From Candidatus Eiseniibacteriota bacterium (GTDB lineage: Bacteria > Orphanbacterota > Orphanbacteria > Orphanbacterales > Orphanbacteraceae), in assembly GCA_016867715.1 (NCBI GenBank), contig VGIW01000006.1, positions 233-64,232 of the forward strand: DNA of 64,000 nt. The letters run 5' to 3'. A program made the position numbers and the translations under genes. Positions 58,681 to 64,000 of the stretch are shown in pieces (the first letter of the stretch is position 1; each line of letters begins with the position of its first letter). The notes beneath the pieces are model-generated. The model was not told the origin of the DNA and did no database searches. It worked only from the letters and a program-made list of their open reading frames with translations.

Positions 58681-59490
58681 TCAGTACTGGCCGAGCGTGC
58701 CGTCGCGGCGGGCGCGGCGGATCGCGAAGCGCACGGCGCCGACCCCGATGACAAGCGAGAAGAAAGTGAAGAGAACGAGGGCGAGGAGTTCTCCCCGAAG
58801 CGACGCGATCCCTTGCCCGCTGAGAAGCGCCATCCGCATCCCCTCCAGCGAATACGTGAGCGGGATGATCTTCGCGACATGCTGCAGCCACTCGGGAAGG
58901 ATCGCCACGGGGAAGTAGACGCCTCCCAAGAGGCGCGAGAGAGAGGTGAAGAACCAGTTCACCGGGTTCCCCCTCTTGAGGACGAGGATGAAGGCGGCCG
59001 CCAGGAGACCCAAGCTGGAGAAGGCGATCACGGTAAGCGCGAGGAAGAGGGTCGCCGCCCCGAAGTTCGGGTTGTCGAGCTCGAGGTGAAAGAAGAACAC
59101 GCCGAGAAGGAGGTAGACAAGAACCTGGAACGAAGCCCACAGGAAGCTCCAGAGCGACGAAGAGAGAAGGTACGTGGAGAAGCGGGTCGGCGTGGCGAGC
59201 ACCGCCTCGAGCGTTCCGAGAACCTGCTCGTCCCGGATCCTCCCCGAAAAGGCGTTGAGCCCGGTTGAAAGGTAATTCGACACGGCGACCCCGATGAGGA
59301 CGAACGAGAAGTAATCCCCTCCGTATCGCCCGAGGTACGGGTTCATCGTCGCGTCGATGAGGCGCGAGAGAAAGAAGAAGAGAGCGAGCGTGAAGCCGAT
59401 CCCGAAGAGCTGAAGGAGAAAGGCGAGCCGGTAGCTCGTCGCGATCTGAAGATCCTTCTTCAAGAACGCGAGGGCTTTGTCGAGCCTCAT
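58681..59490 (-). CDS. ABC-2 type exporter permease
   Basis: MRLDKALAFLKKDLQIATSYRLAFLLQLFG... with 6 TM spans. 4-nt overlap with the ATPase gene. Confidence 0.8.
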   Translation of the reverse strand: MRLDKALAFLKKDLQIATSYRLAFLLQLFGIGFTLALFFFLSRLIDATMNPYLGRYGGDYFSFVLIGVAVSNYLSTGLNAFSGRIRDEQVLGTLEAVLATPTRFSTYLLSSSLWSFLWASFQVLVYLLLGVFFFHLELDNPNFGAATLFLALTVIAFSSLGLLAAAFILVLKRGNPVNWFFTSLSRLLGGVYFPVAILPEWLQHVAKIIPLTYSLEGMRMALLSGQGIASLRGELLALVLFTFFSLVIGVGAVRFAIRRARRDGTLGQY

Positions 59491-60488
59491 CGTTCGCTCT
59501 CCGCGAAGCGCCGGTAAAGCTCCTCGAGCGATCCGTGCCGCACCTCGAGACGGCGGAGGGGCCCGAAGCGTTCCCGCACCGCCCGGACGAAGTCCTCGAG
59601 GACGAAGCCTTCCTCGTGGACGCGCGCGAGGCATCTTCCGCGCGCCGCGAGGTCCTCGTCCGAGACGATCTCGAGGACGCCCGGGAGGCTCCCGATCCAC
59701 GCGCTCCATCCTTCCTTCGGGTCCCGCACCTCGATCTCGACCTCGCGCGGCGGGCGGAAGCGCCCGAGCACCTCTTCCGGACGCCCCTCGGCGAGAAGCT
59801 CCCCCCGATGGAGGAAGACAAGGCGGTCCGCGACCCGATGAACCGCCTCGAGATCGTGGCTCGCGAGGAGAACCGCTCTCCCCTCCTTCCGCGCGAGAAC
59901 ACGGATCCGATCGAGAAAGCGGGCGGACGTGTACGGATCGAGCCCGCGCGTCGGCTCGTCGAGAAGAAGAACCGGCCGCGCGCCGAGAAGGGCGCGGGCC
60001 ACGCAGAGCTTCTGCCTCGTTCCGGTCGAGTAGGTCATGAAGCGCGCGTCGATCTCGTCGATGCGAAGAAGCGCGACCGCCTCATCGATCTCCGCGGCCC
60101 GGCGTTCGGGAGGGACGTTCAGAAGACGTCCGAAGAAGTCGAGGTTCTGTCGTCCGGTGAGGCGGAAGTAGAAGCTTCTCTCCTCGCTCATGCAAAGGCC
60201 GATGCGATGCCGCGTTTCGAGCGAGCGGCGCTCGACGTCGATCCCTTCGATCGTCGCGCGCCCCTCGCTCGGGAGAACGAGCGAGGCGAGGATCTTGAGC
60301 AGCGTCGTCTTCCCCGAGCCGTTCGGCCCGAGCAGGGCGAGGACCTCACCGCGCGCGAGGGAGAAGGTGACGCCCGAAAGCGCGCGAAGGCTCTCCCCTC
60401 GAAAGGGATGCCGGATCACTTCGAGGAACCCCCCTCGAATCGGATACGACTTGGAAAGCCCCTCGACGCGGACCCCGTTCACGAGCAT
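59487..60488 (-). CDS. ABC transporter ATP-binding protein with a ~100-aa C-terminal extension
   Basis: GGGAGG RBS. LLGPNGSGKTTLL (Walker A), YSTGTRQKL (signature), VLLLDEPTRGLD (Walker B), ASHDL (H-loop). Confidence 0.9.
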   Translation of the reverse strand: MLVNGVRVEGLSKSYPIRGGFLEVIRHPFRGESLRALSGVTFSLARGEVLALLGPNGSGKTTLLKILASLVLPSEGRATIEGIDVERRSLETRHRIGLCMSEERSFYFRLTGRQNLDFFGRLLNVPPERRAAEIDEAVALLRIDEIDARFMTYSTGTRQKLCVARALLGARPVLLLDEPTRGLDPYTSARFLDRIRVLARKEGRAVLLASHDLEAVHRVADRLVFLHRGELLAEGRPEEVLGRFRPPREVEIEVRDPKEGWSAWIGSLPGVLEIVSDEDLAARGRCLARVHEEGFVLEDFVRAVRERFGPLRRLEVRHGSLEELYRRFAESER

Positions 60489-60493
60489 CCTCC

Positions 60494-61678
60494 CTATGGT
60501 CTCCTCCGGAACACGCTGAGCGTCCGGTGCGCGAGGAGATCGAGGATCCAGACGATCGCGGCGAGAAAGCGGCGCACGCGGCTCCTCGCGGAGGGGCAGC
60601 TCGCCTCCTCGAAGAAGATCGACGCGCGGAGGGTCTCGTCCCTCCAGAGAAGCCGCGCGAGAAACGAGAGCCTGGAGCGCCGCGCAAAGCAGTACCCCCA
60701 CCAGATCCGAAGACGAACCTCCCGGCCCGGCTCCAGACCGAAGAAGTCGGACCCGCGGATCCGCGAGGCGAACCGTCCGATGCGACTCGGAAACCGAATC
60801 CCCGTCCCCCCTTCTCCCCAGAAGCGATCGGCGAAGAAGAGCGCGGTTCGAACCTCCTCGCCGATCCCCCACTCCTCGCCGCGCGCGACGATTTCCTCCG
60901 CGGCGACCTCGTTCCGCACGGCGCGGAGAATTTTTTCGACATCAAGCAATCGCTTGATAGAGACGAAGAGCCCCATGCGCAGACTCGCAGAGAGGTGCGC
61001 CGCCTCGTCGACGGGAGAGAGAACGCGGATCCGGCTTCCGCGATAATCGTACGCACGGGACCCGCGGAAGAGGGAGCCCACGTCCACGTTCAGGTTCCAC
61101 GGGTGCGGGAGAAGATTCCAGTGAAGCTCCACGACGTCGATTCCGAGCCCTCGCCGCACGTACACGAGGTGGAAGTGGTGCCGCCGATAGTAGGCCCGGC
61201 TGTGAATCCCCTCGAAGAGAGCATAGCCGAGATCGCAGAGCGCGCGCTCGGCCCGGTCCATGAACTCCGGCGGGACGAGGAGGTCGATGTCGCGCACTTC
61301 CCGAAGCACGCTGTTGCCGTAGAAACGCTCCCCGAACGGCAGGCCCTTGAGCACGATCACCGGGATGCCCTCCGCCTCGAACGCGGTGACGAGCCCGGCC
61401 AGTTCTTGCTCCTTAAAGAGATTGCGCGCGGCGGTCTTCTCCCCCTCCTCCTCGATGCTGCGGACGAGCGTCCCCGGGAAGAGGTCTCGGAGCGCCTCCT
61501 CCGAGGAGAGACGCAGGGCGACGACCGGAACGACGCGCGAGCGGAAGACGATCCTCTCGAGCGAGTCCCAGTCGAACCAGCCTCCTTGCGTCCGCACAGC
61601 CAGATCGGCGACCGCGACCGGCGGATCGCGCAGCACCTCCCGGAGGAACTCGCCCTCTCGCGGGAGCCGGAACGACAT
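60494..61678 (-). CDS. Uncharacterised nucleotidyltransferase family protein (NTP_transf_5/PF14907-like)
   Basis: GIPVIVLKGLPFGERFYGNSVLREVRDIDLLVPPEFMDRAERALCDLGY...HFHLVY......VELHWNL has the layout typical of this family. Confidence 0.75.
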   Translation of the reverse strand: MSFRLPREGEFLREVLRDPPVAVADLAVRTQGGWFDWDSLERIVFRSRVVPVVALRLSSEEALRDLFPGTLVRSIEEEGEKTAARNLFKEQELAGLVTAFEAEGIPVIVLKGLPFGERFYGNSVLREVRDIDLLVPPEFMDRAERALCDLGYALFEGIHSRAYYRRHHFHLVYVRRGLGIDVVELHWNLLPHPWNLNVDVGSLFRGSRAYDYRGSRIRVLSPVDEAAHLSASLRMGLFVSIKRLLDVEKILRAVRNEVAAEEIVARGEEWGIGEEVRTALFFADRFWGEGGTGIRFPSRIGRFASRIRGSDFFGLEPGREVRLRIWWGYCFARRSRLSFLARLLWRDETLRASIFFEEASCPSARSRVRRFLAAIVWILDLLAHRTLSVFRRRP

Positions 61679-61683
61679 GTGCG

Positions 61684-62232
61684 CTACCTCCGAGCGCCCT
61701 CATCCTCGCGCGGGAGCGTGAAGATCAGGGCGTAGTCTCTCCAGGTTTCCTCCGTCTCGAGAAACGGCCTCCCCTCGCGGGCGAGCCACGCATGCCCCTC
61801 GAGGCTTCCGCCGCGCTCCCTTACCCCGAAGCAGATCGCGGTCTCGATCCCGCTCTCGCGGAGAAGATGGGCGAGAAGGAGGGATCGGCGCAAGCACGTT
61901 CTCCGGACCGGGAACAAGGGGGAGCGGAGGATCCGCTCGGTGAACGCGTGCGCGATCGCGGCTCTCTCGAGCTCCGCTTCCGCTCCGGGCGCGGCTCCTC
62001 GCGGCGGGAAGAGCGTCTCCACGCGATCGAGGGGCAGACGGACAAAGAGCAGGACCGCCTTTCCGAAACAGCGCGCGAGGAAGACGAGGTTGCGCGGCGC
62101 GGCGAGAACGCGCCACGGGAGCGGATACGAAAGGATCCGCCGTTCGAGCACCACGACGTCCGCGCTCCGCTCGGCGTTCGGAGACCCCGCCGACGAGGAG
62201 GAGAAATCGACCGAGAAACTGCGGGGCATCAT
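61684..62232 (-). CDS. Transglutaminase-core cysteine peptidase, lasso-peptide B2-type
   Basis: RRTCLRRSLLLAHLLRESGIETAICFGVRERGGSLEGHAWLAREGRPF is the Cys...His pattern of B2 leader peptidases. The ATG at 62232 lies 1 nt after the stop of the upstream gene. Confidence 0.75.
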   Translation of the reverse strand: MMPRSFSVDFSSSSAGSPNAERSADVVVLERRILSYPLPWRVLAAPRNLVFLARCFGKAVLLFVRLPLDRVETLFPPRGAAPGAEAELERAAIAHAFTERILRSPLFPVRRTCLRRSLLLAHLLRESGIETAICFGVRERGGSLEGHAWLAREGRPFLETEETWRDYALIFTLPREDEGARR

Positions 62233-62233
62233 C

Positions 62234-63202
62234 CTACTCGATCGCCGCGCCGGAGAGCTCGGCGATCCGCGCGGGCAGCTCCGCGACATCCCTCCCAAAG
62301 AGAAGATGGTACGCCGCCGCCTGTCGAACAAGGTCCGCGAGGAGATCGATGTGCGCCTCGATCTCTTCGCGGCCCGCGGGGAGCACCGACTGGGGGAGAA
62401 GCCGCGCCATCGCCTCGCCCCCGGAAAGGCGCTCGAACCGGCTCCGCTCCCGATCGACGATCGTGGGGAAGAGTAGGAGAGCCGGGCGCACCTCGGCGAT
62501 CCGCCCGGGCGGAGGGAGCGCCTCCTCCGGGAAGAGAAGCTTGCGCCCCTTTCGCACCCACCGGTCCCTGAGCTCCGGAAAGAACCGCGAGGTCCCCTCC
62601 CCCACCTTGAGCGGCTCGGGAAACGGCCGAAGGACGATCGAACCCTCGCGTCGGAGGGCGAAGAGCATGTCGTCCGCCACGAAGGGACACCCGCTCGCGA
62701 CCGCGGCGAGCGTGGCCGAGGACTTGCCGGCGCCGCTCGGACCGCAGACGACCACCCCTTGCCCTCCCGCCACGAAACAGGACCCGTGAAGCGGATAGCG
62801 TCCGCGATGCCGCATCCACACGATGAGCGGGAGAAAGAAGAGACGATGGCCGATCACCCACGGATCGCCGGCGTGGTCCGGATGGACGAAGACGGCGACG
62901 CGCCCTCGCTCGAGATCGAGCCGCGCCGCCGACCTATCGCCGACGACGAGCCACCGTTCGCCTTCCGACCTACAGAAGACGAAGTCCCCCTCCGCAGAAA
63001 CCGCCTCGCTCCGCCCGCGCGCCTGATCGGGGAAGGGGTCGGTGTCGGACCGCGCGCGGAAGGTGTAGACGAGATCCGCTTCGTCCGCGAAGGGCGAGCA
63101 CGCGAGGAGAGGGGCCGCCTCGAGGATCCCCTCTCGGATCGACGCCTCTCCGCATTCCACGAGGATCCGCTCGCCGATGAGATCCAGGTGGAGGCGTTCC
63201 AT
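62234..63202 (-). CDS. HPr-kinase-like P-loop protein (peptide kinase candidate)
   Basis: GGAGG RBS. ...LHGSCFVAGGQGVVVCGPSGAGKSSATLAAVASGCPFVADD... resembles the HprK C-terminal catalytic domain. The upstream 84 aa of tracked ORF 63454 are rejected. Confidence 0.75.
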   Translation of the reverse strand: MERLHLDLIGERILVECGEASIREGILEAAPLLACSPFADEADLVYTFRARSDTDPFPDQARGRSEAVSAEGDFVFCRSEGERWLVVGDRSAARLDLERGRVAVFVHPDHAGDPWVIGHRLFFLPLIVWMRHRGRYPLHGSCFVAGGQGVVVCGPSGAGKSSATLAAVASGCPFVADDMLFALRREGSIVLRPFPEPLKVGEGTSRFFPELRDRWVRKGRKLLFPEEALPPPGRIAEVRPALLLFPTIVDRERSRFERLSGGEAMARLLPQSVLPAGREEIEAHIDLLADLVRQAAAYHLLFGRDVAELPARIAELSGAAIE

Positions 63203-63216
63203 CCGCTCGACCTCCG

Positions 63217-63600
63217 CTAGACGGGAACGATGGCGGCGAGCTTCTCGTCGAGAAGACGCTTGGCCAGCTCGAGGCAGTCCGCGAGGGCGGTCGTCTCGTC
63301 CACATCGAACTCCTCGACCATTCGTTGCGCGATCTCCAGAAGGGTGCGGGCGCCGTCGAGCTGTCCCCAGATGTACTGACCGGAGCTGTTCAAGCTGAAG
63401 TAGTGTCCGCTCTCCATGTCCACGAGGATTCCCTTGCGGTCGATCGAACGCCAAGGGACGCTCGGAGAGCGTTTCAGCACGGAATCCGGACCCAGCGCCA
63501 CTTCGGTCTCCTCTCTCGGTGCGCCGCCGATCCGGCGCGGACCCTCGCGAGAGCCTCTCCTCCGCGCCCCCGGGGCGGCGCTGCTCTCTGCGCGCCCCAC
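63217..63600 (-). CDS. PqqD-family peptide-binding (RRE/B1-type) protein; start may be GTG 63501
   Basis: ...SVPWRSIDRKGILVDMESGHYFSLNSSGQYIWGQLDGARTLLEIAQRMVEEFDVDETTALADCLELAKRLLDEKL is the canonical PqqD pattern. The N-terminal 33 aa of the ORF are Arg/Gly-rich and doubtful. Confidence 0.75.
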   Translation of the reverse strand: MGRAESSAAPGARRRGSREGPRRIGGAPREETEVALGPDSVLKRSPSVPWRSIDRKGILVDMESGHYFSLNSSGQYIWGQLDGARTLLEIAQRMVEEFDVDETTALADCLELAKRLLDEKLAAIVPV

Positions 63601-63601
63601 T

Positions 63602-64000
63602 CTATTCGTTCAGGGAGGAAGCGTCAACCTCCGCGCGGTCGCCGCGGAGGCGCTCGTACCAGAAGAACGCGGCGACCACGAGCGCGTGCGTGATCTCCCC
63701 CTCGCGGAGCATCCGCCCGACTTCCGGTTCGTCCGCTTCGAAGACGTCGATCTCCTCGCCCGGTTCGAGTGCCTGCGCCCCGTCGGGAATGGCTCCGCGC
63801 GCGAGGAACGTGTGGCAGCGGTTCGTCTGAAACGCCGGGTTCGGCTCCACGGTACCGATGTGAGTGAAGCGCGCCGCCCGGTAGCCGGTCTCCTCGCGGA
63901 GCTCGCGCCGCGCCGCCGCCTCGGCGTCCTCGTCCCCCCGGTCGATCCCGCCGCCCGGAATCTCGATCGTGTAGCGGTCCGTCCCTGCGCGATACTGCCG
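63602..64000 (-). CDS. NUDIX hydrolase, 5'-truncated by the window edge
   Basis: The frame is open to nt 64000. ...IEIPGGGIDRGDEDAEAAARRELREETGY (NUDIX box GX5EX7REUXEEXGU) ...GTVEPNPAFQTN..HTFLA... The stop lies 1 nt from the PqqD ORF. Confidence 0.8.
   Translation of the reverse strand, partial: RQYRAGTDRYTIEIPGGGIDRGDEDAEAAARRELREETGYRAARFTHIGTVEPNPAFQTNRCHTFLARGAIPDGAQALEPGEEIDVFEADEPEVGRMLREGEITHALVVAAFFWYERLRGDRAEVDASSLNE

Follow-up and report, generated by a model that had tools for sequence, protein, structure and literature searches.

Leader recognition and leader cleavage of the lasso type, carried out by a B1 and a B2 protein, have so far been seen as belonging to lasso peptide pathways. 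Paeninodin is encoded by padeCAKB1B2D, and the paeninodin-type kinase phosphorylates a C-terminal Ser. The psm cluster of pseudomycoidin carries PsmK and PsmN, and the pseudomycoidin nucleotidyltransferase (NTase) homologue adds hexose. Both the kinase and the NTase gene are known tailoring genes of such paeninodin/pseudomycoidin-type lasso clusters (PMC8498205). Cyclase-free linear polyphosphorylated peptides (LPP) have been described from Bacillota, with the cluster lppA-K-B-S-D-N in Paenibacillus alginolyticus DSM5050 (Popov et al., Nat Commun 2026, PMC13381572). The LPP machinery consists of a discrete RiPP recognition element (RRE; RiPP, ribosomally synthesised and post-translationally modified peptide), a kinase (LppK, HprK-like), an NTP-transferase (LppN), an exporter (LppD, MsbA-like) and a leader peptidase (LppS, SipW-like) (PMC13381572). 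LppK adds several phosphates to core Ser3, the leader carries the motif YxxPxVLxHQxIxFETxxS and cleavage occurs after Thr-1 (PMC13381572). The class was found through, and is delimited by, the gene of a signal peptidase I (SpI) of the archaeal type, the SipW-like LppS, and was reported to be restricted to Bacillota (PMC13381572). Here, we analyse an operon of six genes in a 64,000-nucleotide stretch of a Candidatus Eiseniibacteriota genome (hereafter the window, G000:C6:233-64232), which unites lasso-type B1 and B2 proteins with a kinase, an NTase and an exporter and is accompanied by no recognisable cyclase.

The assembly that contains the window comprises 3.5 Mb in 172 contigs (estimated 100 % complete, 0.83 % contamination), and homologues bear NCBI names of Candidatus Eisenbacteria. 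The locus is a real, conserved pathway and a new variant of a type of system that was first reported in 2026. We read it as an operon, derived from phosphorylated-lasso machinery and lacking a macrolactam cyclase, whose products mature and export a linear, non-lasso ribosomal peptide, and assign this reading a probability of about 0.7. A preliminary description of the window had offered two interpretations, an ordinary lasso cluster with its cyclase and precursor beyond the window edge or elsewhere, and a cyclase-less system for peptide phosphorylation or nucleotidylation and export. The second is favoured by the data below, and a precursor was indeed located elsewhere in the genome (C41:5214-5360); the ordinary lasso cluster with a distant cyclase is not favoured.

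The operon comprises six intact genes on the minus strand (58681-63501) in the order PqqD-type RRE, kinase, B2, NTase, ABC ATPase and ABC-2 permease. The genes are as tightly packed as had been described. With the best-supported starts, 14 nt separate PqqD from the kinase gene, 1 nt separates the kinase gene from B2 if the latter starts at 62232 (relatives suggest a possibly later start, e.g., 62154), 5 nt lie between B2 and NTase and another 5 nt between NTase and ABC ATPase, and the two transporter genes overlap by 4 nt. The motifs GPSGAGKS, CLRRS...GHAWL and VLKG...RDIDLLV that had been pointed out are all present, and the proposed domains (PqqD, HprK-like kinase, B2, PF14907, ABC ATPase, ABC-2 permease) hold on Pfam and NCBIfam scans, the kinase with a sub-threshold score. 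No second copy of the B1, B2, kinase or NTase gene was found in this genome, and no Rfam family matched the operon locus or the surroundings of the C41 precursor.

The 94-aa RRE (63217..63501; PF05402, 64.7 bits) is lasso B1-like: its top NCBIfam matches are lasso PqqD chaperones, under their cut-offs, and its closest PDB sequence matches are TbiB1 and TfuB1. An Asn (in YFSLN) and an Asp (in DCLELA), 37 residues apart, are invariant in six Eisenbacteria RREs, and this pair is typical of RREs binding YxxP leaders. The kinase (62234..63202, 322 aa) is a ScmC-like P-loop protein with Walker A motif GPSGAGKS that matches PF07475 with 27 bits (E 3.8e-6; gathering score 33.3), and its orthologues have a precomputed match to PF27840 (ScmC). 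Its AlphaFold2 model reaches a pLDDT of 92.5 with ATP-PEPCK and HprK/P as top Foldseek matches in the PDB, and the modelled HprK/PEPCK fold is that of the family expected for an HprK-like kinase. Furthermore, the kinases of two true lasso clusters are matched with BLASTP E values of 1e-10 to 1e-11. The B2 protein (61684..62232, or from 62154) is a transglutaminase-core cysteine peptidase and scores 64.4 bits on NF033537 lasso_biosyn_B2 (cut-off 33) and 61 bits on PF13471. Its Cys (TCLRRS) and His (GHAWL) are common to the B2 proteins of the same two lasso clusters, and it is the predicted leader peptidase. The NTase (60494..61678, 394 aa; PF14907, 147 bits) contains a G-x-D-x-D-type motif in which K111, G112, D130 and D132 are invariant in the alignment. 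It matches its equivalent in a lasso cluster of Paenibacillus doosanensis (BLASTP E 1.4e-18) and is the counterpart of PsmN and LppN. The exporter consists of a DrrA-like ATPase (59487..60488, 333 aa; PF00005, 102 bits; best NCBIfam match TIGR01188 drrA with 182 bits, under its cut-off) and a DrrB-like ABC-2 permease (58681..59490, 269 aa; PF01061, 73 bits; PF12698, 56 bits).

PqqD starts at GTG 63501, behind an GAGAGAGGAG ribosome-binding site, and this arrangement is kept in both congeneric genomes (G008 and G009). From this codon the protein has 94 aa as in all relatives, whereas GTG 63600, the start of the longest open reading frame (ORF), is not conserved. Because PqqD starts at 63501, the gap to the upstream NUDIX hydrolase gene is 100 nt; the spacing of 1 nt given in the preliminary description had been derived from the longest ORF and has to be corrected. 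The gap holds a sigma-70-like promoter, TTGACG-17-TAGAGT (63627-63599, minus strand), which overlaps the NUDIX stop codon. One such site was found in the consensus scan versus 0.1 expected, and both hexamers are kept in G008 and G009. Therefore, the six genes are probably transcribed as a unit of their own, to which NUDIX, a conserved neighbour, probably does not belong.

The operon is widely conserved in its family. Among ten examined genomes of the phylum, the kinase occurs in nine, namely all nine of the family, across six genera and with 39-90 % protein identity. The related loci retain the full gene set in synteny, except for L017, which has no ABC genes, and two contigs that end inside the cluster. 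Comparison with three relatives gave dN/dS values of 0.10-0.36 in 14 of 15 gene comparisons, with dS up to 1.5 and the permease at 0.10-0.12; the exception is PqqD against G008, the closest pair (0.53 on 93 codons). Hence, the operon genes are under purifying selection. A second phylum contributes the metagenome-assembled genome (MAG) GCA_034520215.1 of Krumholzibacteriota (L083, JAXHNR010000001.1, 93324-113458). The same seven parts are found there in a split, convergent arrangement, precursor-PqqD-kinase facing B2-NTase-ABC-ABC2. Upstream of that cluster lie a HIT-family protein and a C1 peptidase, and its kinase scores 51 bits on HprK_rel_A (cut-off 200).

Next, we turn to the cyclase. Neither a cyclase nor a precursor had been seen in the window, which is correct and extends to 13 kb of contig beyond it. 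The proposal that a cyclase might lie past the window edge did not hold, as the 13.4 kb by which the contig was extended contain no Asn-synthase homologue. A whole-genome scan with PF00733 returned three AsnB-type loci (C49, C58 and C1), and only C49 is intact. The C49 protein opens with MCGIAG, reaches 417.6 bits on TIGR01536 (cut-off 267) and 191 bits on the lasso-cyclase model NF033535 (cut-off 525), and is a true glutamine-hydrolysing AsnB bearing Cys2. The C58 copy (G000:C58:6155-7384) loses its frame after the glutaminase domain and has a broken C-terminal half, and the C1 copy (G000:C1:116301-117097) is an internally deleted AsnB remnant without residues ~100-450, the synthetase core; the damage in these paralogues could be assembly error or real decay. 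Weaker PF00733 matches on C33, C38 and C39 look like NAD+ synthetase, GMP synthase and QueC. Two real lasso cyclases served as further queries, one from the C-A-K-B1-B2-N-D cluster of P. doosanensis and one from a soil metagenome cluster. Both are without Cys2 (they start with MSAIAG and VGGIFG), and in tblastn searches of the genome they matched only C49 and C58, with 26-28 % identity. With the genome's own AsnB as query, tblastn likewise returned only AsnB-type genes. PF00733 scan, NCBIfam typing and tblastn thus yielded no lasso cyclase candidate in this near-complete genome. Nine related genomes have no Asn-synthase match on the same contig as cluster or precursor, and G005 (96 % complete) has a single Asn-synthase match of AsnB strength. 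No Asn-synthase gene lies within 10 kb of the Krumholzibacteriota cluster. The only Asn-synthase-like gene of that MAG, 190 kb away, is without Cys2 and under every NCBIfam cut-off, and it might conceivably still act as a cyclase there.

The precursor gene of this genome was located via peptides encoded between NUDIX and PqqD in relatives. It lies on another contig (C41:5214-5360), encodes 48 aa (MEARKKSPYEKPELVRHGNLKEITMISFAPPPPGEPGRVDKPHEAGWV), is the sole copy in the genome and has its own promoter-like site. The leader scores 23.2 bits on NF033521 lasso_leader_L3 (cut-off 19). The features of a lasso-type leader system are present, namely the YxxPxL RRE-binding motif, a conserved Thr near the cleavage site, a B1 RRE and B2. 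The core, ISFAPPPPGEPGRV..., begins with Ile rather than Gly, Ala, Ser or Cys and has its first acidic residue at position 10, and thus departs from the lasso pattern of Gly/Ala/Ser/Cys at position 1 with Asp/Glu at position 7, 8 or 9. Two other places were considered for a precursor gene and rejected. The 100-nt NUDIX-PqqD gap and the region upstream of NUDIX contain no ORF with a lasso-type leader, and a 51-aa ORF at L010 5510-5665 is without the leader motif and overlaps the start of a GT4 glycosyltransferase gene on the opposite strand.

The distal precursor type, with a core of the form xSFxPP..., occupies the same syntenic slot in eight genomes of six genera, between a giant surface protein upstream (1375 aa) and a secreted protein with Gly-rich repeats downstream. 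Since this slot is common to the eight genomes, the distal precursor is ancestral and not recently relocated. The downstream protein contains repeated GGGVYRS.DGG.SW motifs that look like BNR/Asp-box repeats (loci L064-L075). Both slot-flanking proteins share a C-terminal tail of ~80 aa, similar tails elsewhere on the window contig match Pfam FlgD_ig, and the operon itself adjoins a giant protein with the same tail. Overall, precursor matches were obtained in eight of the nine cluster-bearing genomes and not in the sole genome of the phylum without the cluster.

In four of the six Eisenbacteria genera, one or two further precursor genes of 40-49 aa stand between NUDIX and PqqD; they are absent from this genus and one other. 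These in-cluster cassettes have their own TTGACA-type promoter and an intrinsic terminator. Three of them (L011 9189-9730, L012 9052-9741 and L013 6942-7660) are composed of a TTGACA-17/18-TAGAnT promoter, a 5' UTR of ~130-190 nt and the precursor gene (two in L012), with the strong intrinsic terminator directly before PqqD. Such an arrangement is reminiscent of an attenuator, by which precursor would be made in large and enzyme in small amounts. The L011 copy was scanned against Rfam without a match.

A profile built from 15 precursors retrieved at least 120 cluster representatives, for which 117 cores were counted. The Y..P motif, a Thr at +15 and a Ser at +18 from the Tyr are found in 14 of 14 local and 107 of 120 database precursors, and 94 of the 117 cores start with xSF. 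At the first core position, 105 of 120 precursors have L, T, V or I, not G, A, S or C. Many cores have 7-10 residues, with 57/117 at or below 10 aa, e.g., LSFTPPGS. Asp/Glu is missing from positions 7-9 in 80 of 117 database cores and 9 of 14 local ones, and 42/117 cores contain no Asp or Glu at all. Many cores are thus unable to form a lasso ring because they have no Asp/Glu. Nine related metagenome precursors (among P0172-P0188) constitute a Cys-rich subfamily with the same leader and a core ...KEITF-ECPNWQCSV..PP, in which Cys takes the place of the otherwise invariant Ser; this points to a different modification of these peptides, possibly a disulfide or thioether.

Among described systems, LPP is close to this locus. 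Both combine a discrete, Tyr-binding (Asn/Asp) RRE of the PqqD type with an HprK-like kinase, an NTP-transferase and a dedicated exporter, both do without a macrolactam cyclase and both lie in glycan-gene-rich surroundings. The separation of the RRE Asn and Asp (37 residues) equals that of N33 and D70 of LppB, which hold YxxP. Moreover, when the Eisenbacteria leader YEKPELVRHGNLKEITMIS is compared with the published LPP motif, Y, P, the hydrophobic pair, H, I/L, T and S are found at identical intervals. The differences concern the peptidase, the exporter, the core and the hosts. LPP uses a SpI serine peptidase, whereas a B2 cysteine peptidase (NF033537) is encoded here, and no S26-family gene was found in the operon or in eight related loci. 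A two-gene ABC-2 pump of the DrrAB type replaces the fused MsbA-like LppD. Cores are short and Pro-rich (xSFxPP..., 7-26 aa) in contrast to the 45 aa of LppA, the hosts are Eisenbacteria and Krumholzibacteriota instead of Bacillota, and the precursor gene is unlinked to the operon in this genus. By this comparison, the locus would be LPP-like in its working but lacks two LPP-defining features, the SpI peptidase and the MsbA-like exporter.

Paeninodin/pseudomycoidin-type lasso clusters resemble the operon in their parts, with B1, B2, HprK-like kinase, PF14907 NTase and exporter (order K-B1-B2-N-D there, B1-K-B2-N-ABC here). The true lasso cluster of P. doosanensis (L081), with the order C-A-K-B1-B2-N-D, corresponds to the operon described here with a cyclase gene and a neighbouring precursor gene added, and its kinase and NTase are matched with BLASTP E values of 1e-10 and 1.4e-18, respectively. 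In contrast to these clusters, this genome has no Asn-synthase-like cyclase. The leaders carry YxxP here and WxxP in Bacillota lasso peptides, and the Trp-type B1 of Paenibacillus has Gly and Gln where the RRE described here keeps Asn and Asp. Furthermore, the cores are without N-terminal Gly/Ala/Ser/Cys and Asp/Glu at positions 7-9, and the conserved C-terminal Ser of paeninodin has no equivalent.

The preliminary description had also mentioned the HPr-rel-A system. The likeness to HPr-rel-A and SynChlorMet lies in the pairing of an HprK-fold kinase with a PqqD-family protein and in the kinase orthologues being placed in PF27840. Membership in HPr-rel-A is not borne out by the scores, since the kinase reaches 24.5 bits on TIGR04352 (HprK_rel_A) and 25.8 bits on TIGR04355 (HprK_rel_B), with cut-offs of 200. 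SynChlorMet differs likewise, with 16.2 bits for ScmC (TIGR04249, cut-off 125) and 30.9 bits for ScmD (TIGR04248, cut-off 100); the operon has no radical SAM/SPASM gene and contains a B2 peptidase and an exporter. Literature searches for cyclase-less clusters of the B2 type and for lasso-like clusters of Eisenbacteria returned nothing beyond the LPP paper (PMC13381572).

In the pathway that we propose, the YxxPxL leader of the C41 precursor would bind the PqqD-type RRE. The HprK-fold kinase would then phosphorylate the invariant Ser 18 residues past the leader Tyr, possibly several times, which would make this residue the counterpart of core Ser3 in LPP. The PF14907 NTase may decorate the phosphate. 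With the leader presented by the RRE, B2 would cut next to the invariant Thr and release a core starting with (I/L/T)-S-F-x-P-P, and the DrrAB-like ABC-2 pump would export the product. Gene content, domains, intactness, purifying selection, the absence of a cyclase, the precursor family and the inability of many cores to close a ring are observed; the chemical steps and their order are inferred by homology to paeninodin, pseudomycoidin and LPP.

Several points weigh against this reading in addition to that reliance on homology. The phospho-acceptor Ser is proposed solely from its conservation and the analogy to LPP. Paeninodin-type kinases use a C-terminal Ser, and only 21 of the 117 cores end in Ser. 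Cleavage may occur either after the Thr or one residue later. The kinase stays under the Pfam gathering score for Hpr_kinase_C and under all NCBIfam cut-offs. Because the precursor gene is unlinked to the operon in this genus, the pairing of the two rests on family-wide co-occurrence, and the fragmentary genome G002 has the cluster with no precursor match. Asp/Glu does occur at positions 7-9 in 37/117 cores, and it is conceivable that an unrecognised enzyme closes a ring in these. Finally, deletion of lppN changed nothing in a heterologous host, and the authors of that study suspected that LppN has an outside partner (PMC13381572).

B1, B2, kinase, NTase and exporter match the accessory genes of paeninodin/pseudomycoidin-type clusters exactly. 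Together with a leader that passes the lasso-leader model and the 37/117 cores with Asp/Glu at positions 7-9, they could also point to an ordinary phosphorylated lasso pathway, in which the cyclase is encoded elsewhere or belongs to a type unrecognised by the models and the product is a threaded lasso. The divergent Asn-synthase-like gene without Cys2 in the Krumholzibacteriota MAG, 190 kb from the cluster, would fit as well. We consider such a pathway very unlikely, however. The sole intact Asn-synthase homologue of this genome is the Cys2-bearing AsnB above the TIGR01536 cut-off, real lasso cyclases match nothing besides AsnB-type genes and the 96 % complete G005 is limited to its one AsnB-strength match. 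Moreover, the only core of this genome starts with Ile and has no acidic residue before position 10, and the family includes 42 cores without any acidic residue and 57 with at most 10 aa. An even poorer prospect is a decaying, non-working remnant of a lasso cluster that lost cyclase and precursor. Six intact ORFs, dN/dS of 0.10-0.36 in 14/15 comparisons at dS up to 1.5, retention in 9/9 genomes of six genera at 39-90 % protein identity, the conserved promoter, ribosome-binding site and start codon, and the distal precursor in the same syntenic slot of eight genomes make decay extremely improbable, even though the cyclase and, in this genus, the in-cluster precursor cassette are absent and L017 lost its ABC genes.

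The operon might also have nothing to do with maturation of the C41-type peptide and instead be a glycan or cell-envelope module that phosphorylates or nucleotidylates a polysaccharide or another protein, the lasso-like peptides being unrelated or regulatory. This is unlikely given that the precursor gene stands directly before PqqD in four of six Eisenbacteria genera and in the Krumholzibacteriota MAG, and that a precursor occurs in 8/9 cluster genomes and is missing from the one genome without the cluster. RRE and B2 are also peptide-handling parts, the RRE with its YxxP-binding Asn/Asp pair. Nevertheless, the proximity to genes for a GT4 glycosyltransferase, for NUDIX hydrolases and for a sulfotransferase is compatible with such a module, distant kinase homologues with PqqD and PF14907 lie inside glycan loci without B2 or transporter, capsule loci also house LPP and paeninodin clusters and the precursor is unlinked in this genus.

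The B1/B2/kinase/NTase/exporter set is kept as a stable cyclase-less unit in two uncultured phyla, together with at least 120 precursor cluster representatives. If the operon matures a linear peptide as we propose, the linear phosphopeptide class would be extended to a new protease (B2), a new exporter (ABC-2) and new phyla. The PGAP label 'lasso RiPP family leader peptide-containing protein' and genome-mining tools would misname these peptides as lasso peptides. A very small substrate such as LSFTPPGS could make PF14907 transferase chemistry tractable, which the LPP study could not resolve. More tentatively, and at less than even odds, the Eisenbacteria and Krumholzibacteriota clusters might represent a second class of phosphorylated linear RiPPs, possibly independent in origin, in which a lasso pathway lost its cyclase and retained B1 and B2. 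The product might be a Pro-rich peptide that is very short and almost invariant, (L/T/I)-pSer-Phe-x-Pro-Pro..., with a phosphate-linked nucleotide or sugar. A constant genomic position, flanked by two giant secreted surface proteins, and retention across all genomes of the family would suit a housekeeping signal or a factor at the cell surface better than a sporadically inherited antibiotic.

With regard to the neighbourhood, the NUDIX gene (63602..64000, minus strand) is represented in the window by its 3' part and runs 180 nt past the window end. The full ORF encodes a NudE/ADP-ribose-pyrophosphatase-like hydrolase of 192 aa (PF00293, 60.9 bits). It stands upstream of the operon in 9/9 family genomes, in four genera with the precursor cassette between it and PqqD. 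The 13.4 kb beyond the window hold, after NUDIX, a divergent GT4 glycosyltransferase gene followed by LexA, a DnaE2-like polymerase, a sulfotransferase and secreted proteins. A second NUDIX gene (232-256 aa), co-directional with GT4, lies between GT4 and the operon NUDIX in L011, L012, L013, L015 and L017; it is present in most genera and absent from this genome and its close relative G009. The short DnaE2-like polymerase (PHP, finger and HHH domains; ~860-970 aa) and the LexA that directly follows it (L010 7217-10557) are syntenic with the cluster in all relatives, and no ImuA or ImuB gene was seen beside the polymerase gene.

Kinase-type lasso clusters of Firmicutes have been observed to carry sulfotransferase genes at their start. 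In this genome, a Sulfotransfer_3/Sulfotransfer_1 gene (L010 10742-11650, contig C6) lies ~6 kb upstream of the operon and keeps the same relative position in L011, L016 and L017. Its link to the operon is doubtful because LexA, the DnaE2-like gene and GT4 intervene. Another context for the kinase-RRE-NTase trio is provided by contig 8298 of metagenome SRR19744812 (L078), where PqqD, a ScmC-like kinase and a PF14907 NTase, without B2 peptidase, cyclase or transporter, are found inside a sugar-nucleotide/glycosyltransferase locus.

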